Shown: piece after piece, positions 36,290 through 57,072 of the stretch
Position numbering within the stretch: the stretch's first letter is position 1
Layout: every line of letters begins with the position of its first letter
From: Ascidiella aspersa
Taxonomy: Eukaryota
Length of the DNA stretch: 64,000 nt
Reading direction: 5' to 3'
Assembly: GCA_963924565.1 (NCBI GenBank)
Contig: OZ004609.1
Coordinates: forward strand, 17,546,001 to 17,610,000
The notes under the pieces: model-generated
What the model saw: only the letters and a program-made list of their open reading frames with translations
Told to the model about the DNA's origin: nothing
Databases searched by the model: none
Translations under genes and position numbers: made by a program

Positions 36290-39200
36290 ATGCAAGTTTC
36301 CAGGATTGGGATAATATACTTTCTTTGTTATATGGCAATATCCGCATGGTGCCAAGGTAAGAAACATATCTTATTGTTCGTTTAATTTTGGTGTATTTGT
36401 TTTATTTTTATTGTGTGAAATTTTAAACCCACAGTCAATTGAGTTAAAAAATGTGTAGAAACTAACAACATTACGAGCTGGCGTTGGTGTTACACGAAGG
36501 CTAATACATATGATTTCTATTAACCTTGCTCAAATTAACTCCTTTGACTCTTATACACCAAGTTCTAACACACATAATATTGGGCCGACGTTGTTGGTTG
36601 CCTTAAACCTTACAGACTTCGTCACGTTTTGTGCTGGCAAGTTTTGTTGAAAGGGCAGTGGTTCTTTGGATGGCGATATAATGACAATGCGGCGCTCTTT
36701 CGGGACGCTTAAACATCTGTGTGTCACAAAGCCAGCCAGATGTGTTTGCTTAGCTTTGCGAAATTATTTCTTGCCTAACACCTGTTCACTCTTAAGCGGC
36801 GGCCTGTTTTGCCGAATCCTGACTAAAAGCAATTCGATCTGCGCAGCGGCTACACCACACTTTAGATTGGGTGAGGGGTGGGGAAATATTGGCATTAAAC
36901 GTCGTGTCGTTTTTTTTGTAAAGGCTGGTGAACATAGGTAACTTAGTTAGTGGGGTAAAGCTGTTTGATTATTCAGTTTAATTAGATGATACATAGAGTA
37001 TTAATTATATTGAAGCTTAGGTTTATACCATAGGCCCACTTAGTTTAACTTTCGTCATCCAGTGTACGATTTCGGACGTGTTTCAAAATTCCCATTATTG
37101 CTGCGTGATAGTGAGGGCGTAAACTTGTTTTTAAAAAGATAGCTTATACTAAATGCGTTTTACCAAGCTGAAATATTTAAAAGGCGCTTTGGCGCTTTCT
37201 CAATCTGCGTTAACAAAGTCCGGAAACAAGGGGAGAAAATTGTCGGCTCGTACTCCAAGTGGGAGGGGAACTTCTGTGACATCACGCTTTGGCAAACAGC
37301 CGAAATTGACGCGGAGCAGCCATTGTTTGTGAAGTCACGGCCGCGTGGTGTGCGACGTTTGTTAGATTCACACAGTGAAACCAATTAGCTGACGCAAGCA
37401 GGTAAGGATGACATTAACCACCTTTATTATGTTGTTTTCCGTCAAATGTGCCGAGCTTATACAATATGGCCAAATTTTATTTTTTGGGTTAGTCACTTCG
37501 CCCAAATGCATAATTGTATAAAGACAAATCAAGTCTGCGCCTTAAGATTCACAAAATACATGCTCTAATTTCGTTGGAAACATTTAAGGTAAAATTGAAA
37601 TAGTATTCCATGAATCACGATTGATGCTGCAACTTCTATGTAAACGCTCTATACGTGCAGACCCAAAATCTTGAATATATAAATACGACCACCAGATTTA
37701 TAACAAGCGTTGGAGAATAGTCAATCGAGCACCTGGACGCCGAAGTCGCTGCGACGGCGACAGACGAAAGAGCTCGCCCACACAGCTGTCGAACGCGCGC
37801 GGGAAACAGGGCGTTTTCTAATTGCCGGCTTGCCTTGGTCGACCGCTTCCCCTCCACGACGGGGCCGGTGGGACTCGCCACGTTAAACTCTTCGCGCTTG
37901 TTGCAGCAGACGGCAATTTGATCGAGCTGGAGACGCTTAAACACGTGTCCAAACATGAAGCCTGCAATAAACAATCTGTGCAAATACCAGACGTCTCGCG
38001 CGTTCTCATGTACCACCGTAAATAGCATTTGCAATATAGGAGAAATAATAGACCAAATTTTTCGCATGTCAAGGCCAAGCGGAAGAACATTTTGCCTGGG
38101 TTGTGCAAATAGTTTGTTCTTATAATATGAATTTCCTAATACATGTTAATAGACTTCTTGGACGGACTTGCTAGTCGATTAAACAAATTTGCAAATAATT
38201 TTCCTTCTACCAGATAAGTGCAACCGGCAAACTTAAGCTACACTTTTAGACGCGATTTAACAATAATTCATCAAAATGGTTAAAAGGCTAAATATCATAG
38301 TATCACAAGACTTTCTATATAAGGGGATTTTTCCACCGAAAATTTCACACGTCATATGTTTGTTTGGGAGACCAGTCGAAAAGAATTACGTCGTTCCATG
38401 TCAAGCACATTCGGAAGCGATTTTGCATTATTTATATGCACTTGACTGCTGGAGGCACGTCGCCTTGCTCCGGCAGTTGCTGACACCAATTGTGCAGCAA
38501 ACAACCGCCCCCGAAACAAAGGAAAGATTTGGCTTTCTTCCATTTCACACATGTATTTCGCCCTTTCCAATTTTCATAACAGATCTTTCCAGACGCTCAG
38601 CCACTTCCCAGCTACGTGACGCGTCTACCCGCAAACTGAAAATGGCTATACCAAATGCTTTGACTTTGGAGATAGCAGTTGACCAGTAAATGGGCACCTG
38701 TTAAAACAGAAGGGGATATAAACTACTAAATTTATGGCTTTGTAGAATCAAGCTTTGTTTGCCTTGGTTGTTTTTATATCAGCCATCGGTATTTACTTTA
38801 AAGTCAGACATGTATTTAGGAGACTGTAAAATGCATATCGTCGTTTTATTTTTAGTTGCATTCTGTTGGTTTTGTCATGCCCATGGCTTATAATGTGATT
38901 TCTCCATGTAACAGTTTCTAGTTTTTTTGACATATGTATTTGTAAGTTGGCTACCACAAGCACTCCATATTCGTGATAATACTAGTGTGTAAAGTCGTTT
39001 CTATGCTATTGTGAATGACTGAACTTATTCAATCTATTTTTACGACTTGATTTATCAGTCGCTATCGCAATTCTTATTTCCTTGACCTTTTTTTCACGAC
39101 GGTTTACTGCTTTGCTGCGACGTGGTCGCTCTAAGTAGGATGCTTGTACGGCCAAACTATGTCACCGTATAGTGGATTATGCTAGGATGGCTTCTTTAAG

Positions 39201-42200
39201 TATCAACATGTTGTATCTTATTTTCTTCTCGTAGTTCTTATATGTGCTAGCAATGCGTAATGTGATTCCTTAAACATTGGATTCAAAAAATGTCGACATG
39301 CATGAAATGCCCTTGTACCGTATAAAAAGTTTTATTGTAAAAGGCGCGAAGTGAATTAATGATTCGAGGTAATCGCAGCATTAACTCACGTTGCAATCCG
39401 CAACAACGCTATACACTGAGACATTTCCTTTGACCTGTAAGCCGCAGTCTACAGACGTAGGTCTGTAACCGCCATTATCCGGCATACTACTTTATTGGTT
39501 GAATAAAAATAGTTGATATTTCGTTGCTACGGTTTGCGGTTGAAATACATTTCGTTCCCATCGTTCGACAGCTCGCTCCTCGGTTTTAAGTGAAAAAATC
39601 ATATTAACTTGATGATGTTTTTTTCAGATCGAACTTCGCCTAAACGTTTCATAAGGATGTTAGAATAATCAAGATTTTGCTTATGATTTCTATTATTACT
39701 GCTGTTTGAACGTTTGAACGGAATTTTTTGATAGGCCAACTTGGTACAAAATTGCCAATTTAACGTCAGTTCCGAAAGATCATAGAACCAAATAGTTTTT
39801 ACGTAGCCAAGATCGGAATACAATTTTTAATGTACAAGTTTCACAGTATGATGTCGAAAAAAATTTTCCCGGGCTAGTTATTTATGTTATATTGTAAATA
39901 TTGTTAAGATTTTTTTGTAAATATATATTTTGATACACGCTCTCAAGCATTAGAAAGACTAAGCAGCTAAACGTGCACAAACAACAAAAAAGTTTGCGGG
40001 TTTAGCGCACCACTTTACCTTCACTACAGTAAAGTTATATTCAACAGGTACAGGATGTCCATTTCACGTGTGTACAGCAGAGAATCTAAAGTGTGCCAAC
40101 AAGCGATTGATGCGAAACGCAGACGGTTGTTTCATTTGTAAATGCGACGGTAAGTTAATCATCGCTCACGTTGTATCGCCCATAAGTTATTCAGAGTCTA
40201 CCTCAAATCAGAAAAGTTTTCTTTATGTCATGCTCACAACCTTCATAAAGTTATTTTTCCTGTGCCTATAGTGCGCCCACTTAACGCGTTTTTATCTACC
40301 AGCAGGTAACAGCGCAAATAGGACGCAGCATCCTTGCTTATTGCACGGCTGTACTGTTGAGCTACTAAAATGCGAAAGTTCTAAGCTGCGGAAAGACGAC
40401 AAAGGATGCGCGCTGTGCGAGTGCGAGGGATCGGGAAGTAAGGCTTGTTAATTCATTCAATCTGCCTGTATGAAACAACCTTAACTTTTGTGTAAGACTT
40501 GGAGCATAGCAGGTTTCTGCATTAGGCTTATGTCACTCACACATGCCTTGCCCTTTCGCAGCAAACCAAACTGTGCCGATTAAATTCGGAGATTCGGCTT
40601 CGTCAGGGGGCAGAATCCCTTTGTTCGATAGCGGCGGCAGCAACACACCCGCATGTCGACAGCCAAACTGCACCGCTGCAGAGTTGAATTGCAGTCGACT
40701 GGCACAGGGCCCCAGCGGTTGTCCTGTATGCCGGTGCGCGCTCGAGAGCGACGGATCTGACGGGATGCTGATCGGATCAGTGAGCAATCCGATATTTAGT
40801 GAGACCGACCTTGACATCGGTAAGATTATTTTGTTTTTGTATTCTCTCTGGTAAACTTAGCAGATATTTACAAAAGTGCTTAGGGTCAATTCTTCGTTGT
40901 TTAGATCGTTTTTATATATCATTATTTGAACAGTGCCTTTTTAGTAACTTTAGCTATATTTGAGTGTATTCTACAGTCTAACTCTATACTATAGGCTAAA
41001 GGACACTCTAGATAACTTAAACAATTAGTCACGCTAAACGCACTTTTGTCCACACTTTTATTTGGGTAACTAACAAGATACTCCGCTCATGCGTTTAGGT
41101 CAGCCCTGTCCAGATCCTCACGAAATATTGGAAGACGAAATGATGAGAGAAGGGGTGAACCGGGGAAGAAGACCACTATATAAACTGGTGCTCAAAAAGC
41201 TCCGAAAGGGATTTAAGCCTGGAAAGAAATACAAAAGTGAGTAGCTATTCGCGGGTAATGCTTTTTGTGATTCAGTTTAAATGCAGCTACGGATTAGTCG
41301 TGCTTTAAGTTTATCAACGTCGGTTAGCTCTTTAAAAAAAATACTATGCGTTTGCGCCCCAGCCAGAAAGGCTTCTATGCAAACGATCATATATGATGTT
41401 GACAATTAGCTCGCAAATTCGGGTCTAGTGTCAGTTTGTCTTGCGTCATCTGGCGATCTGGATTAATGTAAACGAGTTCATGATGCCAATTTTATAATGA
41501 TATTTTATAATGAAAATACATTAAGAAAACAGTCCAGTTATAGTGTTTTATCTTGTGACAACTGGTGACCAAACATTCATACCCATTTTCTTATAATTTA
41601 GATAAAGCACCTGATTTGTATGTGAATATAGATATTCCATCTTAAAACGAGAAGCATTGCTATCTACATCAGATATCCTTTGTGCTGTACCCGAAACGTT
41701 GGCGTTTGATCTTTCTAGCAATTCATAGTAATACCGCAAGAGTTTGGCGTCTGTGGGTCGATAAAACACTCAGGTAGACGGGAAATCTTTAGCGATAAAT
41801 TAAGCAAAGAAGCCAAATTCTCAATTGCTTAGCGTTTTTATCGGTTAATCTTTCGAAAACTATTCATTGAGGGTCGCCATACTCTCAAATCCAGGAGTGT
41901 CAAATTTAATCAGAATCACAGATTGCGAGCAAAAAACTAAATGAGAAACTCCTGTCTACAAATCCGTGTCTTATTTCGGACTTGTTCCCTACACACACAG
42001 CTTTTTATATATAAAGAAACCTACGGTTAGGAATAATAAATCCGTTATAACGGTTACTGTATTTGTTTGCATAATAATTATTGATTTTATTATTTGTTGC
42101 TTCTATCTAATTTTACCATATCACTTTATTTTCGGCAATTTTAACGACAACGCATTGTACGCACATTGAAGTTGTTTTTTAAATGACGATTTACACTTTG

Positions 42201-45200
42201 AGAGTGGTAACTTGTGTATGAACACTTGAACAGTTTTCAGCTAAGCCTATTTTGGTAAGTATGTATGCAAATCACTTCGACCCCATGGCGTTGACAGATT
42301 GGACACCTTCATGCCCAATCTGTGCTGCGTGAGGTTTCGCTTGTGCTCCAGTTGATCTGAAGTGCATCTAGTTGAAGCAGACCTGATTAATTACGTTTTG
42401 AATGATGGCTGAAAGATACGCAATTATCACCTGGAGAATTTTATCGCGGTTAAAAACCCGGTTGGCCAAAGATATGACGTCATTGCCGACAGCAAAGTTT
42501 GTCGCTGTATTGTACGCGTCCGATCGAGCGTCGTTTTTGTGCTATCGCCGTGAACTAAGTAAACAAAGACATCAAATTTTGACGCGGCCTTGATAAAGCA
42601 CTTCGAATGTGGAACCAGACAGCATTTGTCCCATACCCGCAGTTTATGAAGTGTTTTGGGTTTGTCGCTACAGGCTTTTAAATGCGCGCGTCATAAGCCC
42701 CTGGACTCGTCAATTTCCATTTTGCGGTCTTTCGGGTGACTTTCTCCGACTAAGTTAGACGGGCCCTAGCAAAAAAGAAATCACAGTAGTCTCGCCAATG
42801 CAGGAATCTCGCCTTAGCCCACCCATATTGTCTTGGAATTATTAAATTCAACTGGAATGACGTGTAGCCGAAACAGTTTAGTTTTAATTACATTGAAATA
42901 TCTGAAGAATAGTTTCACTTTCTAATTTGGCAGACGCAGAAAACTTACATAATAATCGAAGTCTTGCTGTCACTTAAAAGTCAATTTAATTTACCGGTCT
43001 AATCAAGGCTTATAAGAGAGCCGGCAATTAAACGGTTTATTACGCATACCATACGCCACCTCCACAGTGTAGTTTGTTAATCGCCATTTTAATTGCATCG
43101 TCTGGTGTATAATAATCAATACACAATAAACAATTTTGGAAAATCATGTCAAAGTATTGGATTGAGTAAGATAAATTTCGTATAATACCCAAATCATTTT
43201 GTACCGTCAGCTGTTACAAAAACTGCTACATAAGTTTACCTGTTTCCTTATGAGTGATATGATTACATCAAACAACATCGTATAGTTTTTGCCCAATTAT
43301 TTGCCTTCAAATCGCGTTACTTCTGATAATAGACAGTAGTGTCAAGTAAAAGCCCAAGAGATTAGCTATTTCAGCAAACAAACTGCTGCGTGACGATCGA
43401 CTTAATTAGGCTGCACTTTCCTTTAAAGCTACCCTTTCGACTGCTGCCGGGCCCGGCGCCGTCGCTGCACGCTCCAGCTAGCTCGTTGGCGACGAAGTGG
43501 CTCAACAGATCTCATAAAGTCTCGCTAACGATGAGAGAACTTCTGGTACTTTCACGGCACGCCTGCTTGTAACTACAGGCCAATAACTGGCGGTCGACCA
43601 GGTCTTGTTTGCACATCTGATTATCGCCTTATGTTGATCGATACACTGGCATCTCGCGGCGGGCGCCGGCACACGACCCAAACAAAACCCAGGATTTTCG
43701 TCGACCAAGCCTCAGTCGAAAAACACAGGGGCGTAAACAGACAGAGTGTCTTGAAAGACGCCGGCGCGCGATTTGCAAGGCTTTTTCTTGAGGGTCGGGT
43801 TTCTTGCCGCAATCTGCCCACGCCTTTCATTTTGACCCGGTCGTACTTAAGGAGTCACGGTTCGCCGAAAGCCGCGAAATTCAGTCAAAAATGTCGGGGT
43901 ATGGCGCCTACGCTCACTCCGTTAGGTGACGCTGTTTAAGTACTACGGAAGCGGCTATTCCATATTTGGCCAACTTTACGTCCCAATTCAAAATTACACC
44001 CCGAACACGGCGAACAGGTTAACATAGTTGTGCAGTCTAATACCGATTTTTTTTATCTTTTTGGAAAGTGGTTGCGCCACTTTCAGAGCAGAATCCCGAC
44101 GCCTCTTCAAGTGATTTTCCGGCGTCGGTCTCTCGGTTGTTTATTCCGCAAAATAAGTGGAAGCGACTAAAATTACAATTTTTTTAAATCTTGTAAAACG
44201 ATCTTGAAAAACAGAAAGTAATTCTCCTCGTAAAATTGTTTTAGAGTTGTGCTTTTGTTTTCGGAATGTTAACAGTATTTTTCTTTTGTCTTTCCCCAAA
44301 ACATTATTTTAGCTACAAAGGCTTGTTTTTTTATTGACACTTCATTGACATATACACATTTAAAAATATATAAAAGTTTTTTCTTTTCCCTGTGCTATAT
44401 TAAATTTGACACTGACGATTTTTGTTATAAAATCAATTTATTACCTCAAAAAATGTTTGTGGATATGTTCGATCATCACTTGTTATATTAAACTTATACA
44501 ACAAAAACGTTGTCATCACATGCAGAGGCACCTCATTATCTTCAACATCCCATATTGAGTGACTACTTCCGACTCGTCGGTCAAACACAGCATTTCAGAA
44601 TTTTAATAACAAATTCAGTAATATTTCCTTTTTTAACTTGGGAAAATTTTGAGATGGCAGGTTTAGGTTTGAGAGGCAAGTTCCAAGATTCGCCCAACCG
44701 ATTCCGTCGTGTCTATATCCTGGTTTGACATTGATGGATTACTTTGCGAGGGGATTGTATTGCCATGAGGAAATAAATGTGTGTCATAAATAGGTAGCCA
44801 CTAAACTTGTTGAATCATATTCCGACAGCTTTATTTAAATATTAGGTGAAAACTAGCACGAAGTCCCTTTCCTATTATCAGTTTCAAAACTAACGATTGA
44901 TTGTCTAAGTGGTGCTTTATATTTGTCAAGCTTTGCGAAATTGAAATACATCGCTGTGCCTGCAGAACTAATACACGCACCTCTAGTGGTGTAGCGCCAA
45001 CATGACAGTCGATTGGGTTATTACTCGTATTTACTATGACACTTAACCTCCTATGCTCGGTACCCGCGTAATTGCTTTGGTAGAAAGTTCATTTTCAGCG
45101 TCGTAAATATTAAAGCGCTAGAGGCTTACGCGATGTGGATGAGGCATTTCAGAGAAAAAATGACGGACCGTTGATCGAAGTAAATTGTTCATGAGACAAC

Positions 45201-48200
45201 AACATCTCTGCGATATTCGCGGTCGTAATTTTGGTGTCGGACCAGACGACAGGCCGGCGGCCGAGAAACAAGATACGGCGCCGCTGAGTTTACAGCCTTA
45301 CGACACCGAGTCGACTCTGTTTGTTCAGATAAAGGCACGGAAAAAACCTTGGCGTTGTTTTATGTGTGCGTGACAAAAATGTAATCTTGTTCTTTCCTCT
45401 CAACAAATTCTGTTGACGGTAAGTGACTGTGCATTCAAAATGATTTATCCAATTTGCCAGAGCTTAGCCGTCTAATACAAATGCGAAGATTGACGATAAC
45501 GACGCGATTTAAGGCTCACTTTAAAAATATGTTTGTCAGCCGCGCGACTTGTGTAATTTGCGTGTGTGATTGACCCCGTCTCGCGCGCTACTTTTAAGTC
45601 GGGTCACAAAAATACTTGTACTTAGCGCTGTTTTTTTAGTTTTATATTTATAGATATTTGTCATACTTTCAGTTTTGGTCAAAGCCAGAAGCAAGTCGAA
45701 GCCGTTTAAAGCCGTACTGATTGACCTTAAGGCGGCGCCTGCGGGAACATCCGGCAAAGGCAGGAAACGGTTTGGTATGAAATAAACAAAATATTCAAGC
45801 ACGAACTATCGCTTAACATTGAAACATCATTGTAGATACCCATAATTGTGCGTTCTCCAAATTTTTTTATTATTCACATACTATTTGTTTTCCAACAGTG
45901 CTATATCTCATACAAAAGATAGGAATTGGCTAAATACAGCTGTGAGGCAAAAAAATCTTGTTTTAAGTGGATCTTCCTTAACCTAGCAGTAGTTCTAAAA
46001 ATTCGAAGTTGCCTATACCATCGACTTACTTTTAAAACCAGATGACGCAACGTGTGGGGCGGGAATATTGCAGCAAGTAGACGGCGTTAGGATTGTTCCC
46101 AACTGTCCCACCGCCGCTGTTGAAGGCGACACCAAGAACAAGACAAAGTTGCTCGTCAAGTGGATTGCGCCTTCATGCGGATGTGTTTACGTAAGGTAAA
46201 TGCGCAAGTCTGAGTTAGTGAAACGTCAAGCATCGTTTGCGGTCATTAGCGGTCAACCTTTTTTGGCTACCAGCAAATGAAACGTAAAAGGAATTAGTGT
46301 TACCGAAACAAAAAACAGGTGTATCCAGGGACTGTGCACGAAAACGGTTTTTATAAGTTCAGGTGCGTCAGACAATCTTCCTGAAACGCTTCACAGTTTA
46401 AAGCTAATCTCACCCTATAAACGGTTTCAGCCATTTTCATATGTAAATTAAAGAAAATATACTAACATTTTTCACCAGCTTATCGATACTTAACTCGGAG
46501 TTCAGTTGGGATCAGGGTATTTTTCTACAGGTAATTAGAAATATCAGTTTTTGTCAACAGAGCCACTGTTATTGACTTCACCGACCGTGTTGCCTTCATG
46601 GATGAGGGTCTGGCACCAACCAGTGACGGCGTAGCCACTCCGGGAAAGGTGAATAAGGCGCTCTACAAGACCGTGTGTGCGCGCAAGAGGTTTGTGACGA
46701 CGGTCGAAGACACTTAACATTTTAATAACTGGTTCTCTTAAAAAAATGCCGTTTGAGGTGACTTCTGATTAAATGTACCGCAGTATTGTTTAAACAGAAG
46801 GAAAATAATCAACTAAATGAAATTATCTTGAAACGTTTTTTAATCGTAAAACTTATTTTAACATATTTAGTTTTCCACCTAGGTCTATTTATATTTTATA
46901 TTTGGTGAAATTTTTACTGTCATACCCTATATGCATTTTCATGCAACCATAATTTGGTTGTTAATCAGTCCGCATTTCGTTTATTAATCTTCTGTTCTTT
47001 TTTGTTAGAACCAAGAAGCCACGTCCAGCAGGTAATTGATGGTGATTATGCATGCAACTTCGTGTAAAAATACTATACCACAATTGCAAATAAGTAAAAT
47101 ATACAATATATACTTAGCTTAAAAAACGACATTTCAAGTGATTTTTTTTATTTGGTAAGGATTTTTGTTTACATAAACACAGATGCTCTTATCGGAATAT
47201 AAGGTATGCACCGAATTACTACCACAATATAGTTGAAATACAAAGTAAAGAAGCGAGTATGTAATCACCCTGTTTCTTTTACTTGCTATTACGATAATGT
47301 TGTCAAATAGTCTTACTTTCAGTATCATATACTAACTTGTAGCCCCGGGCATCAAATAACTCTGTATGCTACTTACGAATGGCCATAACTCTTACAAATA
47401 CCACTTCAAAATTAACCTTTTCTAAAACATTTTAGTAAATTAATATTTAATTAACGCAATCAGTGTGTAACTTGCTTTTTGGTTTAGCTCAGGATATTTT
47501 CCAGTCAAGGCTACTGCTATAGCTCTTGGCAGGTCACTTGGCTCCGATTTATAAGCATTATTAATTACAGTTGTGTTTTGTTTAGATAAAAATCCACCGA
47601 GAGAAGAAGTCAAGTCGTGGATTGCGACTGCGTGTTGCAATGCGGCTATTTCACTCTCGACGCCGTCTACAAAAAAGCGCATGGTTCCTCATGCAGCTGC
47701 TGAAATTTGTGAGCGACAAGCAAAACTGTACGGCAGAGGCTGGAATCCGTACAACAGGTAAACTTGAATACATGTTACTGACATCACGTTACTGCAATTT
47801 CACAATATACAGATCAAAGAATAAAAAATGGAACGAAATATGGCCTACGGTTGTGCACTGTAGAGCAGGGGTGGGAACCCTTTTACCGGGAAGCCATAAA
47901 GTGGAATACTTTTGTTGTATTTCGATGAGAGTCCTTTAACATGTTTCAACCTCTAGTTTGTTAGAAAAACGAACATGACCCTTTATAAGAGATTTCTACA
48001 ATAAGAGGATTCTGTCAAACAATAAGAGATTCTGTCAAACGGACTGATCGCCACCAACTGAAAAATATAATTCGCGCCAAGCGCTGAAAAAAATTGCTAC
48101 TAGTCTTGTTTTAAAAAAATAATAAATACAGATTCGAAAAGGGCTATGGCCGCGGGCAGTTTTATTCAAATTACGCTAGCACATAATAGCTAGATTGATC

Positions 48201-49377
48201 TGCGGCCGACATCTCTTTATCAAAAAAGCTATATGGCGTCACAAAAAGAGCCATAAATGGCTCGCGAACCATGGTTTCCCGACCCCTGCTGTAGAGGTCA
48301 GCTAAACACTAATAACATTCAAAAATCCTAGTTAAGAAACATAGTTTGAAGACTTAATGATGCTAAAAGTAACAAATCTCAACTTTTTTAATGATATTCG
48401 ATTGTGCGTTCTCCTGGATAAAAGGAAATGTAAATAAAGCAACCTTTTTTTATTTCGTCATGTCTTTGTTCTTCTAATTCTTTGTTTCGTTTTGTAAAAT
48501 TTTCGATAAACACAAAATTTAAAGCAACCCAACCGAACCTCTGTGAAAGGTTTACCGAACTTCAGTGAAACTCTATTAATCTATCACTGAGTTCCATTTG
48601 TGGAAGGTACCAACCAATATTCAACTCTTTCTGTGTTTTATTTTACAAGGTATCGCGTAATGCAAAGAGCTTGCAAAAGAGAATACAAGAAATGCTGCTT
48701 AATGATCTATGAAGTCATGAAACAGAAAGGAAGTACGTATTACTTTATGTACTTTATGTAAATGCTTGATTGGGAGTTTAATCGTTTAAAACGCGCGTTT
48801 TATAACGCCGTTACGCAAAGGTTACCCTATACGGCGGGGGGTACGCCTTGTGTAAGTCTAGGGCGTAACAAAATAACTCACTATTTTCTGATATCGTACT
48901 TTTGCGACCTGACCTTTAAGCGCTCAAAGAGCCACTGTGTTCTAGAATCTAGACCTAAGACCTATCTATCATGTTTAAACCCCAATAACCAACTTGTTTG
49001 TAGGGGTTCCTTTCATACACAAACATAACCGCAATATATTTTTTTTGTTTAATTTCTTGTTTTGTGATCCCCTATTTATCACAAGATATGGGAATAGTAA
49101 AGTCAGTTGTAATTTAGACCTGAGATACTTTAGTTTACAGCCTCAAATCACCATCCACATTTTTTTATCATTTCGGTATGCTTGTAGGCCTAATCAAATT
49201 CCCGCTTTTTATGCAGCCGTGTTTAAACCGACGAGCGGTACGGGTCGCCCTGGTGTCGCCGCCCCTTCTGCCTACCCAGCTTCCCATCGCTCATCAAAGA
49301 AACGACCAAATAAAAATAAAAATAAGAGGTTGCGTCTCAGAAGACGGAAGAGCAAGAGTCATCTGTCGATGCGCTGA
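36290..49377 (+). CDS. Secreted multidomain protein (507 aa): signal peptide, 3x antistasin-like, Reeler (F-spondin type), anaphylatoxin-like Cys motif, basic tail
   Basis: Phase-consistent exons 36290-36356, 40048-40149, 40303-40437, 40562-40819, 41099-41236, 45673-45774, 46042-46195, 46561-46689, 47009-47031, 47586-47757, 48650-48732, 49217-49377 (1524 nt). Signal peptide MQVSRIGIIYFLCYMAISAWCQG; repeats such as CPFHVCTAENLKCANKRLMRNADGCFICKC; Reeler FKPGKKYKILV..PNCPTAAVE..LVKWIAPSCGCVYVRATVI..FMDEG..LYKTVC; ACC..ICERQAK..ACKREYKKCC. Confidence 0.85.
47866..48288. mobile_element. hAT-type MITE with perfect 8-bp TSD
   Basis: TIRs caggggtgggaacc ... ggtttcccgacccctg; TSD ctgtagag at 47858-47865 and 48289-48296. 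Confidence 0.88.
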
Positions 49378-50939
49378 ATGAAAATGACTTTTGCTTTTGC
49401 GCAACTATTTTGTTCCTTTTCATCTCTTTTCCATCGCTCGTCTAGCTCGTCACGTCGTCCTTCAATGTAAAGTCCTTGCCAACGCACGACGCAATGGAGA
49501 AGCCCATTATTCCACGATGGTTGTATTACCGAATTCAACTATGTTTTAAAATAGAAGGCCTATTAGGTCGAAGTCATGCGTGGCCCACATGATGTTGATT
49601 CGCTGACAAGAATGAAAAGAAATACATCATGATTGGAATATGTTTGAAGATTTTGAAGCTTGCTCACTTTATTTAGTTCTGCATTTATGTTTTGACAAAA
49701 ATGCTCAATGCTTTTCTTTTCGCGTTTTTATCGTTTGTAAATAAGAATATTGAGTTTGCTATTGCGCTTAAAAATGTTTTATTCTTTGTCTACAAATCTG
49801 ACACAAATGAAGAGTATTTTTAAACTACAGCCAGTGTAGACAATTAGTTTTCTTGCAAATTCATTAAGAGGAGAATAAATAGCTATTTTCGTTGTTTTAT
49901 TAAGGCAGTATCCAAGCTTTTTATTAACTGACCCCAATTTACATAAAATGAAAACAGCATTCACATGCGACCTTAGATTGTTTTCTAAAAAATTATTGAA
50001 CTAAATACCGCGAACGATTGATTATGATGCTTAAATTATACACAATTTCAGAGAACTGTGGCTACGCATGTGTACTAAAATGAGAAGTTTAAATAACACG
50101 AGGATTTAAACACATAAAAACATGATTCTTTTCATTTATTTTAACATTTTTAGTATATCCGTGGTTTAAACGAGTGCAATGAAAAAACTAAAACTACAGG
50201 AATCGGCGAGTGATGGCGGCTCCGTTAAAAGGCTAGGCGACCCCACATGGGGACGCGACCCATAAGTTAGAGACCACTGTATAAAGTATACTTCTGGAGA
50301 TAAGATCAATATAGACTCAGTGCATAGGGTTAGAAACGAGTATTAGCATTTAGGGGGAACTATTTATTAACCAAATAGTAATTCTTTTTTAATCCAAACA
50401 TTTCAGGAACTGTTAGTTGAAATAAAACATCAGAAAATAGTGCCATATATAGATGGGGGACATCACATAGTGACTTTATTAATGTAAAAAAAAAATTATT
50501 AACATGTAAAAAATTATACACATTTTTTTCAAATAGGTCCACAAGTATAACATCATAATCGGCATTCGTGAGTGATCTACCAGTAACTCTTCGATATAAT
50601 CGTAATTTAGCAGAATATCTAGATTATGAGACCTGAAAATATCGCCTTCATAACTATAAAGTATTACTGTCGTTCATAGGATACTTTTTTTATGGTTACC
50701 CAGATCCGGAATAACATAGACATGTTATACATAGTTTGTTTAAGGATTTTGTTTAAGCAATTTGCAAGGGTATGCAGTGAAGTTAAAAAAAGAATAGTTT
50801 TATTTATTTTACCTACCTGTACATTATTATGCAATAATAAGTTACAAGCCGAAAGGAAAAGACGCACGAGAAATAAAGATAGATAGCACCTAATAAAAAG
50901 CGAGTGCAGGTATACGTTTACTTTTGTGCAGATATACGT

Positions 50940-53900
50940 TTACAAACTGGCCCATTTAACTCAAAAAGCTGCGAGATACCTATTTCCTATAGCGCAATAT
51001 AGTATTCTGATTTTTTCACTGTTTTCACCGTGTTCTTGATTATCATTAAGGAAGGCAAAGTTTTGGCGTATTTACATCGATAAATCACAAAGCGAGCACA
51101 AATCAGTAAACAGTTTAGCAAATCATTCTCATTTACAGTTTCAAACAGTTAGTGGAATGGCTTGTTGGGATATAAAAAGTTTGAATGAAATCTAGGCTTG
51201 TGACCAAAGTTAAGCGTAAACGGTGCATTTGGGTTATTTAGTTGAATTGTTATACCTAAGTACTTAAATGAGTGTTCTGGCCACTCGAGGCCTTTGTTCG
51301 CGTAAGGTTTTTCTGTCGAAGAACGATTTGATACTACACGGAATGCAAGCGATTTTTGCATACTAATTTTATATCCGGACATGTCTCCGAAATATCGTCA
51401 GCGAGAATAGATACTTGAAATTCGTCGTCCTTCAATTGTAATGCAACTAATTCACCGTTACGCCACGCCGTTGCTAGACATTTAATACATATAGCAAAAA
51501 AGAGTCGGGAGATAATGGGTCGTCATGTTTGACACCTCTTTCGATTATAAATTCGCGCGACAAAAAGTTGTTGTTGTTTTTTTACAGGTAGGTAAAATTT
51601 CCTAATGTAATCCCAACCAACAGTGCCAAACACTTTGTAAATGTCCAAGGAAGAATGGAGCCTGGAATTTTATAAACGTCGGAGGAATCCGTAATTTCAA
51701 ACAGTATTAAGCGGAGATTAACTATCCACAATACATCAGCCCTCCATAAAACCATTTTGGTCTCAACTGATTAGGTACTCGATAATTGCTTTGTTCTGTT
51801 GTTTATAACTTATGATATAATTTCATAGTCGGCAATAAACAGAGAGATAGGGCGATAATTAGTTATCAGCGAAATATCTTGATGTGGCTTGGGGATCAAC
51901 GTTACAACACCTTACGCTTGACTTACTGAATTTATCGGTTTCTTCAGTATACATCCAAGCATCGTAAAACAAGTTTTTTAACTCTTGCCAAAAAGTCTGA
52001 TAAAATTCTACTGGCAATCCATCAAGGCTCGGGGACTTATTCCGCAGCATAGAGTTAATTGCTGATAAAATTTCATCAAGCGTGATTGGGCGTTCGTTCT
52101 ATTCTTTCTGTATCGCGCCTAGCCTCGGATATAATAAGTGTACGTTGAGTTGTGCTTAAGTTTATTTGGAATTGCATCGTTTGTATAGACTTTCAAAACA
52201 ATTGGCAAGTTCTTTCAAAATATCCTTTTGTTCTGTTTGGATTTGATCACACACTTTTAGGCGGTTGATTGATTTTTTTGGACGTTGCGTTTCTCTAAAT
52301 TTAAAAAGTACTTGGTTTTATCACCCTTCTCTGCCCAGCTTTTTTTCACCCTTCTCTGCTTCTAATAATTGCACCTTGTGTACGCTTTTCTATCAAGTTA
52401 TCTAGCTCCAGTTTTAAGTTGGCCAACTTATCGGTTTAACCATGTTGGATTTATTTGTTAGCGTTAATTCCCGTTCAATGCCTTGTATCGCCCCTTATAA
52501 ATATTCCTGTTGGCTGTGGTTTGCTAGTTTTATTTTGGCGCTGTGTTTAATGGATTCCCTAGTCCTAGGCTTGCCATTTTTTAGAAACGTAAATCCGGGA
52601 CGCATATTAAAAACTGCAAATAAACTTAATGTAGACCTAATACAAAAGATTTAATGCAGGTAATTAACTTAACGGGGTTGCGGTTGTTTTATATTTTGTC
52701 AGGAGGTATTTTCCAGGCCCCTATTTTTAAGGGTGGGCTGTCTAAGTAGCCTAATTTAAATTGTAACGGAGAGTAATGTTCTGTATTGTGAATAAAATGA
52801 GTCGGATAAATACTTTGTATAAGTAAAGTAGGAATCGGCCCTCGTGAAAGCAGCAACCATATTAGGCCGTACGTACATGTTGGAAAAGGCGCTGCTGTGT
52901 ACATTGACAAATTCGTATTCCTGGACCAAATCATACTCAAGCATAAGTTAAACAAAATGTAGGATTCCATCAAGCTGGCCTCTTAGAACTATTACATATT
53001 ATGCTGTACGTCATTTGTTTGAGCCGCGTGTTTTTGCCGATGATTTAAAAAGGCAATTTGACATGTTATTAAGTAATGTTACGGATAGCGTAATATCCTG
53101 GCTTGAGTGCTAAATAGTGTGTAACGTCAAAAAAACATTTTACTTTTTTCTAAATAAAACATTTTAATTTCTACAATCGTTAATTGTTATATACAGCATA
53201 TATGTTGGTTGTCCCTTGACTATTTTTTCCTTATTGTGCCTGAAATGGGTTAACTAAATGATTCCCCACAAATGGAGTTAAACAAAAAAGTATTACTTTT
53301 ATAGTTTTGAGAAAGAATTGCTAAATGGCTAACTCAAGAATTTTTACATTTTTAATTTTTTTTTGGTAAATCTCAAATTGAAAAATCCGGGACAAATTGG
53401 TTAACCGGCCGGGACACCGGGACAAGGCCTTAAAACCGGGACTGTCCCGGCTAAACCGGGACGTATGGCAAGCCTACCTATAGTCCCTATACGTATTGCG
53501 CGCTTCGTGCTTTTAATTTAGGCCTAATCGTTATTTAGCGAGAGATTTGTGTTTAGTTTCCAGTATCCTCTGCCACGAGGAGAACTCGAGTACTATTTTT
53601 TTGATCTGAGTTAATGGCTTGTGTGATATTTGCGGAACTTACTGTAGGTAATTTAGCGATGACTCCGATATGAAAAAGAAATCAATACACGTGGCGGTCA
53701 TGGGATTAACCGGAAGCCTATTGACGGGCTGTTGGGTGCAGATATCGAAACGCGTCACACAACTTGTAAGAATGCATGTGCGATAAAACACTGGCACGAG
53801 AATTTCGGTTAGAATGTGAGAGACCCTGGTTTTTATTATTATTACCCTGCACAACTGTATTATAATTACCTCCCAAAATAACTCCGAGTTATCAATAAAT

Positions 53901-55346: not shown

Positions 55347-57072
55347 ATGCTAAAGGGTGCAATACAAATAAGTAAAATGCAAGTGCCTCATATGGCTTGC
55401 GATGATCGTGAAATTTCTCCGATTCGACATTCTTTTTCCATTGAATCTCTTATAAAGCGTGAGTTTACTTCCGAATGCCACGACATTAACTCTACAAACA
55501 AAGAAAGTTTATCTACAGAGGTATGTAATAAAGTTACACCTATATAACGTTCTATAAATGGATAAATGCTACTTTTCACATTATTTGCTCGAGGGCACAT
55601 CCATGTTTTTTATAGTGCTAACGTTTCGACATAGATAGAGCGCTGGTCGACATAAGGCAGTGAATTTTTTTTAACCTAAAGGTGGATTGCGTTTCATGCT
55701 ATATTTAAGTAAAAATTTTCAACTTAAAATGAAAGATATTTCAACTTAGTTTAACACAAGTTTTCTTATTAACATTTTTATGTCACCAAATACTGGTGCC
55801 AAGTTTTTCTTATAAATAAAATTCTGGCTAACTAAGTAAATTAATCAAATTCTTTTGCGCAATGCGAGAATGAAGAGGATGTAAGCTATATGGTATGTAT
55901 GATATGCAAGTTTGTGCAACGCGTTAACTCACACGTGGCTTCTGTGTGGCCAAACAGCTGTTGTCTAAGGCCTTACATCTTGTTTTTCAAAAATCATCTT
56001 AAAAATCGCATTGGGCTTTTACAAATAGCAAACAAATGCTATTTTTAGGGGTCAATGGGCCACGTCATCTCTAAACAGCCCTCTATCCCAATATAAAAAT
56101 ACCTGGACCCATGTGAGCAAACTACGGCGCTCCACTTTAGCCACACAAAATCTTTAAACTACCGTATATTACATTTACACTTTGTGTACTTTTTTGTTTT
56201 TCGATATTTACCAAAATATAATTGTATTTCAGGCCTGCATTGGAGAGCACTTGAGCGGAAATAACAAGTTACTTCCCTACGTCCGTATGCATTACCCTGC
56301 ACCAACCTCTAATAAGCAACCACTATCTACTTATCAGACAGCAAACGATATCATTGTGCCAAGAGTTTTCACTCCATACTCAAATTCCACGTCGCGTTCT
56401 CAAGATCTGGCGCATAATGTGACGCACGAGACTTTCGTCAAGGCAGGAAGTCCAACACTGGGCCTACCTTTAAACTATCATCAAAGGATTGCGGCTACCT
56501 ATGCCACCTTGTCGGCCTTGGGCTTAGCAGGGCGATTAACTTCTTCATTACCTGGACATCAGCCGTCTGAATTTCCATTTTCCGGGACACATCTCGGAAC
56601 TGATTGTCGCGACAGGCAAGTACCCAACTTCATGGATTACCGGAATCAAGCAACCACGAAACAACCAAGGACACCTCCTCGAATACCGAACTTCGCCGAC
56701 AATGGAAAACACGATCAGGGTCTTCACAAAGACAACAATTCTCTACACAATTCACTTGCAGGACAACTTTCTTCATCATACACCAGTCAATCGTTTAAAG
56801 CTTCTGTAGCTTGTGAGAATACCCAGTCCGAGGTTGACAAAAAACGCATGAGAACGGCTTTCACAGGACATCAACTCGTAGAACTTGAGCGAGAATTTCA
56901 TTCTGACATGTACCTTACACGCCTTCGAAGAATTCGTATTGCCCAAGCTCTAACTTTAACCGAAAAACAAGTTAAAATCTGGTTCCAAAACCGAAGAGTT
57001 AAGAGAAAAAAGGGAGATAAACCAGAACGTAATTCAAGTGGATCGGTGCAACTAAACAATGCCGAAACGTAG
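55347..57072 (+). CDS. Gsx: Gsx (GS homeobox, ParaHox class) transcription factor, ~337 aa, two coding exons
   Basis: Exon 55347-55520 (contains eh1/SNAG-like HSFSIESLI) joins in phase 0 to exon 56233-57072. Homeodomain [57 protein letters not shown] carries the Gsx-typical KRMRTAF, MYL, RLRRI and [20 protein letters not shown] at ~57137. Start codon uncertain. Confidence 0.87.

Follow-up and report, generated by a model that had tools for sequence, protein, structure and literature searches.

A predicted ascidian protein joining antistasin-like repeats, an F-spondin-type Reeler domain and a six-cysteine module in one chain

The window considered here is a 64,000-nucleotide stretch of the Ascidiella aspersa genome (assembly GCA_963924565.1, contig OZ004609.1, positions 17,546,001-17,610,000; coordinates given without a contig are window positions), and within it lies what we call the mosaic gene, which encodes three antistasin-like repeats, a Reeler domain and a six-cysteine, anaphylatoxin-like module. 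Judged from sequence, the whole architecture sits in one chain and typifies a conserved ascidian family, best called a new domain combination among the known mosaic matrix proteins that derive partly from F-spondin. We think that the protein may be a polycationic matrix adaptor that binds glycosaminoglycans and that arose in ascidians by exon shuffling, and we would put the probability of this reading at about 0.5. The interest is that a conserved, predicted extracellular protein should have a domain combination that we found in no paper; that traces of its construction are still visible, in ancestral Reeler introns and in antistasin-like exons that are most closely related to those of a different gene in this genome; and that the Ciona orthologue opens the gene to expression, knockout and binding tests.

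The mosaic gene is real, and it is a 12-exon gene common to other sea squirts. Its exons occupy 36290..49377 on the + strand, which is the strand of every exon described below, and when joined by script at canonical splice sites they give a frame of 506 codons with a lone stop at 49375-49377, all 11 introns being GT-AG and of compatible phase. The structure and phases of the original prediction, which had been made from the letters alone, are thus upheld; its length of 507 residues would follow from the NAGNAG acceptor of exon 3, which keeps the frame and adds one codon, so that the protein has 506 or 507 residues. Two exon-based searches of the 309-Mb genome indicate a single copy. Exon 1 (36290..36356) carries the ATG and a predicted signal peptide at residues 1-23, and a hydrophobicity scan places the protein's most hydrophobic 19-residue stretch at residues 3-21 and finds no hydrophobic segment of membrane-span strength beyond residue 30; the protein is predicted to be secreted. 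Each antistasin-like repeat probably has three disulfides, as do the Reeler domain and the last module.

Transcription was followed in one stranded RNA-sequencing run (X5), of which 6% was read; 78 reads were placed, and junctions were listed from three reads upwards. Nearly all of the placed reads have the sense of + strand RNA, and depth is highest, at 6.5, in the bin 49232-49725, over the 3' untranslated region (49378..49880, its end approximate, with AATAAA at 49874). The RNA is joined exactly as modelled across intron 7 (3 reads, linking exons 7 and 8) and intron 8 (4 reads, linking 46689 to 47009), and the splice model is therefore confirmed at these two places, the other nine junctions (introns 1-6 and 9-11) falling below three reads. 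In this 6% of the run there were no reads in the bin 40340-40833, which covers most of exons 3 and 4, and reads were also present within introns 1 and 9. Among the 12 indels listed of the 15 in the placed reads none is exonic, and three exon substitutions that were checked comprise one silent and two missense changes. Within intron 1, + strand RNA at 37376-38857 reaches a depth of 1-2.4, above that over exons 2-4, and it may be pre-mRNA, come from an alternative start or represent a non-coding RNA; an open phase 1-1 candidate exon in the same intron, at 37907-38017, is linked by no observed junction and lacks a counterpart among the homologues.

The evidence for a single chain comes principally from other ascidians. 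A two-sequence profile of exon 7, compared with 1.84 billion representative sequences in a shallow search that may miss distant relatives, gave nine matches, namely seven family members, one unrelated sequence and one left uninspected. Three homologues are full-length: those of Ciona intestinalis (438 residues; LOC100176057, XP_002130986.1, UniRef F6UPF7) and Phallusia mammillata (537 residues; CAB3260766.1), both annotated as 'uncharacterized', and P0005, a 548-residue frame on a 1,832-nt contig, which is probably a spliced transcript because so long a frame fits on so short a contig. End to end, they are identical to the model at 143/423 (Ciona), 191/485 (Phallusia) and 166/476 (P0005) positions, or 34-39%, they have the same order of parts, and they keep all 30 mature cysteines, with one Phallusia cysteine a single column off. 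The Ciona and Phallusia proteins (34% and 39% identical, respectively) also share the basic linker and tail, and differ from the 506-residue A. aspersa protein in overall length and in the make-up of linkers and tail. In addition, a metagenome contig, L049, holds exons 6-12 in the same phases, including the 23-nt exon 9, with an open frame, 11 of 11 cysteines and 43% identity. All named sources of family members in the exon 7 search are ascidians, and the family is apparently restricted to them.

It is very improbable, on this evidence, that the antistasin exons and the Reeler and module exons form two genes, or that the model is a chance join. Such a reading could point to introns 1-6 and 9-11, which were not seen in A. 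aspersa RNA, and to the absence of the antistasin exons and exon 5 from the 8.3 kb upstream of exon 6 in L049; but it is refuted by the three full-length homologues, one of them probably a transcript, since these show all of the parts within a single chain, and it also sits badly with an intron 4 of only 279 nt, which has neither a polyadenylation signal nor an ATG opening a signal peptide, and with a Reeler domain that is itself split by intron 5 at an ancestral position. The single protein that had been proposed is therefore borne out, and the separate genes that the original prediction had named as its refutation were not found. Its remark that no known protein joins these parts holds for the literature, in that full-text searches gave no paper joining the three domain names and none on the mosaic gene among the papers listed (the gene identifiers themselves being checked only in one paper's supplements), and the excerpt available of PMC4164782 has no bearing on the gene; it does not hold for the databases, where the family was already present as the uncharacterised LOC100176057.

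The Reeler domain, at about residues 187-358, is of the F-spondin type by sequence. It begins in exon 5 (41099..41236), to which alignment and profile assign Cys190 and the first strands, continues after the 4.4-kb intron 5 in exon 6 (45673..45774), has its core in exon 7 (46042..46195), the most conserved exon (32 of 50 residues identical to L049), and ends at Cys357 in exon 8 (46561..46689), both flanking junctions of which are supported by the RNA and which also starts the basic linker. This linker runs on through exon 9 (47009..47031), the 23-nt microexon. Searched against the PDB, exon 7 alone matches Spondin-1 structures at E 7e-4, and a full-length family profile has three significant matches, all of them to Spondin-1 (E 1e-6, with about 130 residues aligned). 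Pfam Reeler (PF02014) scores 35.4 bits in Phallusia and 45 bits in Ciona against a cut-off of 21; the full-length P0005 protein has no match, and in A. aspersa, scanned exon by exon, exon 7 reaches 16.2 bits. There are six other Reeler loci in the genome, and that on contig C8 is a true F-spondin with a Spondin_N domain; to a four-sequence family profile its Reeler scores 30.6 bits, against 7.0 or less for all five of the others (three modelled only in part).

F-spondin and other Reeler genes of the genome have an intron at the same place and in the same phase as intron 5 (phase 1), and intron 7 (phase 2) has its match in the five non-spondin Reeler genes and not in this genome's F-spondin. 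Beside two F-spondin-like disulfide pairs, the domain has a family-specific extra pair, Cys271 and Cys312, which are probably bonded to each other. What follows the domain in F-spondin is absent, as had been predicted: within the genome Spondin_N (PF06468) matches only contig C8, it was not matched in Pfam scans of the mosaic exons or the full-length homologues, and thrombospondin type 1 repeats (TSRs) were not matched in the model or in the three full-length homologues, all of which end in a basic tail. The protein thus shares with F-spondin/Spondin-1 (PDB 2zot, 3coo, 2zou) the Reeler subtype, the phase-1 intron, and a secreted-type and basic character; it departs from it in lacking Spondin_N and TSRs, in having antistasin-like repeats before the Reeler and a six-cysteine module after it, and in a Reeler that is internal, with longer loops and the extra conserved cysteine pair. 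In passing, another Reeler gene, on contig C1 at about 419,000 (minus strand), continues into a long exon of Pro/Gly/Phe pentapeptide repeats, an unusual matrix-like tail.

The three repeats of the N-terminal half are encoded one per exon, each in a phase 1-1 exon, and have the cysteine spacing 4-6-(9-11)-2-1. Repeat 1 lies in exon 2 (40048..40149; spacing 4-6-11-2-1; Pfam Antistasin E 0.19, below the cut-off), repeat 2 in exon 3 (40306..40437, the exon with the NAGNAG acceptor; E 0.38) and repeat 3, of spacing 4-6-9-2-1, in exon 4 (40562..40819), between a linker and an acidic linker. In bits, the Pfam model (PF02822, cut-off 21.2) gives 12.7 and 11.8 for the first two and no match for the third, and it has no match in the full-length homologues. 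The terminal C-x2-C-x-C is found in all three A. aspersa repeats and in 12 of 12 across the four full-length sequences, and after the Reeler core this is the best-conserved region of the protein (56-59 of about 130 residues identical). The three antistasin repeats first proposed are therefore present on their phase 1-1 exons, as a divergent antistasin-like '4-6-x' subtype by sequence rather than as typical members. The closest relatives found are in a gene on contig C2, where 13 repeats, likewise spaced 4-6-x and ending at phase-1 donors, are arranged in groups of three that alternate with Kunitz domains: between mosaic and C2 repeats the identity reaches 17 of 30 residues, against 12 or fewer for five repeats from other loci, and a C2 repeat that is 57% identical to a mosaic repeat passes the Pfam cut-off at 28.8 bits. 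With the antistasin family (leech antistasin, gigastasin), then, the mosaic repeats share a six-cysteine unit that ends in most copies in G-C-x2-C-x-C, and they are of the same subtype as above-cut-off repeats elsewhere in the genome; they differ in a six-residue second loop, in a Thr after Cys2, in having six-cysteine repeats only and in falling below the Pfam cut-off.

It is tempting to ask whether these repeats inhibit serine proteases, with the protein held on glycosaminoglycans by its basic half, and their conservation, the Kunitz domains that adjoin their closest relatives, the 28.8 bits that one of these relatives scores in Pfam Antistasin and a predicted repeat structure (pLDDT confidence 76) whose best whole-length structural alignment is to gigastasin, non-significant as that is (TM score 0.52, root-mean-square deviation 2.4, E 8.2), all lend themselves to the idea. 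We nevertheless regard such a matrix-anchored inhibitor as decidedly unlikely, and it is the reactive loop that weakens it: leech antistasin inhibitors have a basic P1 residue (Arg or Lys) after Cys2, in a three-residue loop, whereas of the 12 repeats in the four full-length sequences of this family, 11 have Thr after Cys2 and 11 have a six-residue loop. Each repeat, moreover, has six cysteines and is not the 10-cysteine antistasin domain, and a seven-repeat profile has no PDB match at E 10. The function of non-leech antistasin-like proteins is, in the available part of PMC7851590, described as largely unknown. Turning to the C2 locus for its own sake (about 24,015,000-24,025,000, minus strand), it consists of near-identical tandem units of three antistasin-like exons and a Kunitz exon, which could reflect recent internal duplication or assembly expansion, and it ends in an exon that looks by eye thyroglobulin-type-like.

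An exon-shuffled origin of the mosaic gene is supported at the sequence level, the basis being the phase 1-1 exons 2-4 together with C2 repeats of the same spacing that end at phase-1 donors; this, with the predicted signal peptide, agrees with the exon-shuffled, secreted-type protein envisaged at the outset. In the history that we picture, the first exons of an F-spondin-like gene would have been parted from Spondin_N and the TSRs, and would have acquired both a cassette of antistasin-like exons of phase 1-1 and a different 3' end; this rebuilding may predate the split of the Ciona, Phallusia and A. aspersa lineages.

The six-cysteine module (residues 385-442) is the more difficult part to classify. 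Exon 10 (47586..47757) supplies Cys385, Cys386 and Cys410, and when folded alone it is predicted at low confidence (pLDDT 58) to form two helices, on which Cys1-2 and Cys3 are placed as they are in C3a; exon 11 (48650..48732) supplies the last helix with Cys434, Cys441 and Cys442, which in profile comparisons is the C3a- and fibulin-like part. An ANATO domain, for comparison, is a helical bundle in which the disulfides run 1-4, 2-5 and 3-6. The order CC-C-C-x6-CC recurs in six of six sequences, the first loop having 18-23 residues, the second 21-23 and the last gap invariably six, and a relaxed form of the cysteine pattern, chosen post hoc, arises in 10 of 100,000 shuffles of exons 10-11. To this extent the anaphylatoxin-like module first proposed survives; that it belongs to the ANATO family is not established, since Pfam ANATO (PF01821) matches none of the three complete homologue modules and nothing in exon scans of the mosaic gene, and since the matches to C3a are non-significant. 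We lean somewhat towards true homology with ANATO, and do not file the module as a member.

There is nonetheless a respectable, if in our opinion lesser, chance that the module is a helical bundle with three disulfides, peculiar to ascidians, that came to resemble anaphylatoxins by convergence and not by descent, a question of classification only, which fits any function. Convergence would account for the missing Pfam match (as a control, module 1 of the genome's own fibulin scores 19.9 bits), for loops that exceed the roughly 8-13 residues between Cys2-3 and Cys3-4 of ANATO domains, as compared with spacings of 12-12-6 and 12-9-6 in fibulin-2 (PMC11220139, in excerpt) and 12-13-6 and 12-8-6 in this genome's fibulin, for an intron that differs from the fibulin-module intron in position and phase, and for the lack of a usable match in the ESM Atlas. 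It is harder to reconcile with the identical cysteine order and the invariant last gap, with the (low-confidence) helical placement of Cys1-2 and Cys3, with PDB matches of two module profiles that are exclusively to C3a (3/3 at E 2.2-2.9 and 5/5 at E 4.7-7, non-significant and with the third C3a cysteine out of register), and with a family profile that beats 995 of 1000 cysteine-fixed shuffles of the genome's fibulin module 3 (for module 1, only 868 of 1000); measured against a whole database, none of these similarities reaches significance. Nor is there significant similarity to the anaphylatoxin region of the genome's own C3, the scores being reached by 91 and 43 of 1000 shuffles.

Set beside C3a, C4a, C5a and the modules of fibulin-1 and fibulin-2, the mosaic module shares the CC-C-C-x6-CC order, predicted helices and a cationic character, and its last helix aligns weakly to C3a and fibulin module 3; both of its loops are about ten residues longer, however, and it is single, is not part of a thioester protein as in complement, is not followed by EGF repeats as in fibulins, and shows neither a conserved furin site nor a conserved C-terminus. 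Should it prove to be ANATO, it would widen a domain known from complement and fibulins; otherwise it is an undescribed disulfide-bonded helical domain. Among the comparison genes themselves, the C3-like gene (contig C4, about 9,858,000, minus strand) has anaphylatoxin-region cysteines that are rearranged relative to the canonical six-cysteine order, and the fibulin-1-like gene (C4, 28,185,000-28,214,000, + strand) has three anaphylatoxin-like modules, the second of which is without cysteines.

What the protein might do is suggested chiefly by its charge. Counting Lys and Arg against Asp and Glu, the A. aspersa protein has 36 versus 17 in the Reeler, 13 versus 3 in the module and 19 versus 1 in the low-complexity, very basic tail that exon 12 (coding part 49217..49377) encodes before the stop; across all homologues the module has 10-16 versus 1-3 and the tail 10-25 versus 0-7. 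Glycosaminoglycan binding is suggested because the chain is strongly basic from the Reeler to the C-terminus in every homologue, and the reelin-N domain of F-spondin is described as binding heparin (PMC3117680, in excerpt). In the matrix-adaptor reading, the secreted chain would attach to sulfated glycosaminoglycans of the matrix or the cell surface, anchored by the basic surface of the Reeler, the six-cysteine module and the tail; the neutral-to-acidic N-terminal repeats would project outward as protein-binding modules, and not as classical protease inhibitors; and dimers may form through the helical module, as they do through the anaphylatoxin-like region of fibulin-2 according to excerpts of PMC11220139. 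Several points weigh against this proposal: only two of the 11 junctions are confirmed by RNA in A. aspersa, and expression is low in the single run; so high a positive charge would fit antimicrobial or nucleic-acid binding equally well; heparin binding is carried over by analogy from a domain about 25% identical; the anaphylatoxin resemblance behind the dimer idea is not significant; and the transfer of exons between the mosaic gene and the C2 gene could, as far as sequence goes, have run in either direction.

The same cationic module invites another interpretation, namely that the protein is an innate-defence precursor from which proteolysis at the linker frees the module, either alone or together with the tail, to act as a C3a-like peptide that kills microbes or attracts haemocytes independently of complement C3. 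The linker before the module is rich in Lys and Arg in six of six sequences, the module is strongly cationic, every PDB match of the two module profiles is to C3a, and C3a is reported, in the parts available, to be antimicrobial (PMC2752989) and, in Ciona, chemotactic (PMC7565592). Yet no R-x-K/R-R site is present in the linker of any of the six sequences, and the stretch after the module varies both in length (23-95 residues) and in sequence, so that there is no conserved receptor-binding C-terminus; lacking a conserved furin site and C-terminus, the released-peptide reading is weakened, and neither the non-significant, out-of-register C3a matches nor the comparison with the genome's own C3 helps it. 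We consider it unlikely, and more doubtful still is its stricter form, in which a true ANATO domain with two loop insertions sits in a matrix-tethered precursor and a cut at the basic linker sets free a peptide that acts like C3a, as an antimicrobial or a chemoattractant, with no need of the complement cascade; if that were so, this would be a third home of ANATO, beyond complement C3/C4/C5 and the fibulins.

As to the neighbourhood of the mosaic gene, a cysteine-rich exon on the minus strand (5370-5672) has by eye a somatomedin-B-like motif, with no Pfam match at E 0.1, and fragments at 51149-52098 (minus strand) look, again by eye and with no Pfam support, like decayed reading frames of a long interspersed nuclear element (LINE). 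About 6.8 kb downstream of the gene, at 56158-57072 on the + strand, is a homeobox exon (Pfam Homeodomain, E 3e-21), presumably resembling the ParaHox gene Gsx. Finally, short high-copy repeats at about 47865-48300, in intron 10, and at 50030-50270, just downstream, coincide with raised contig depth.

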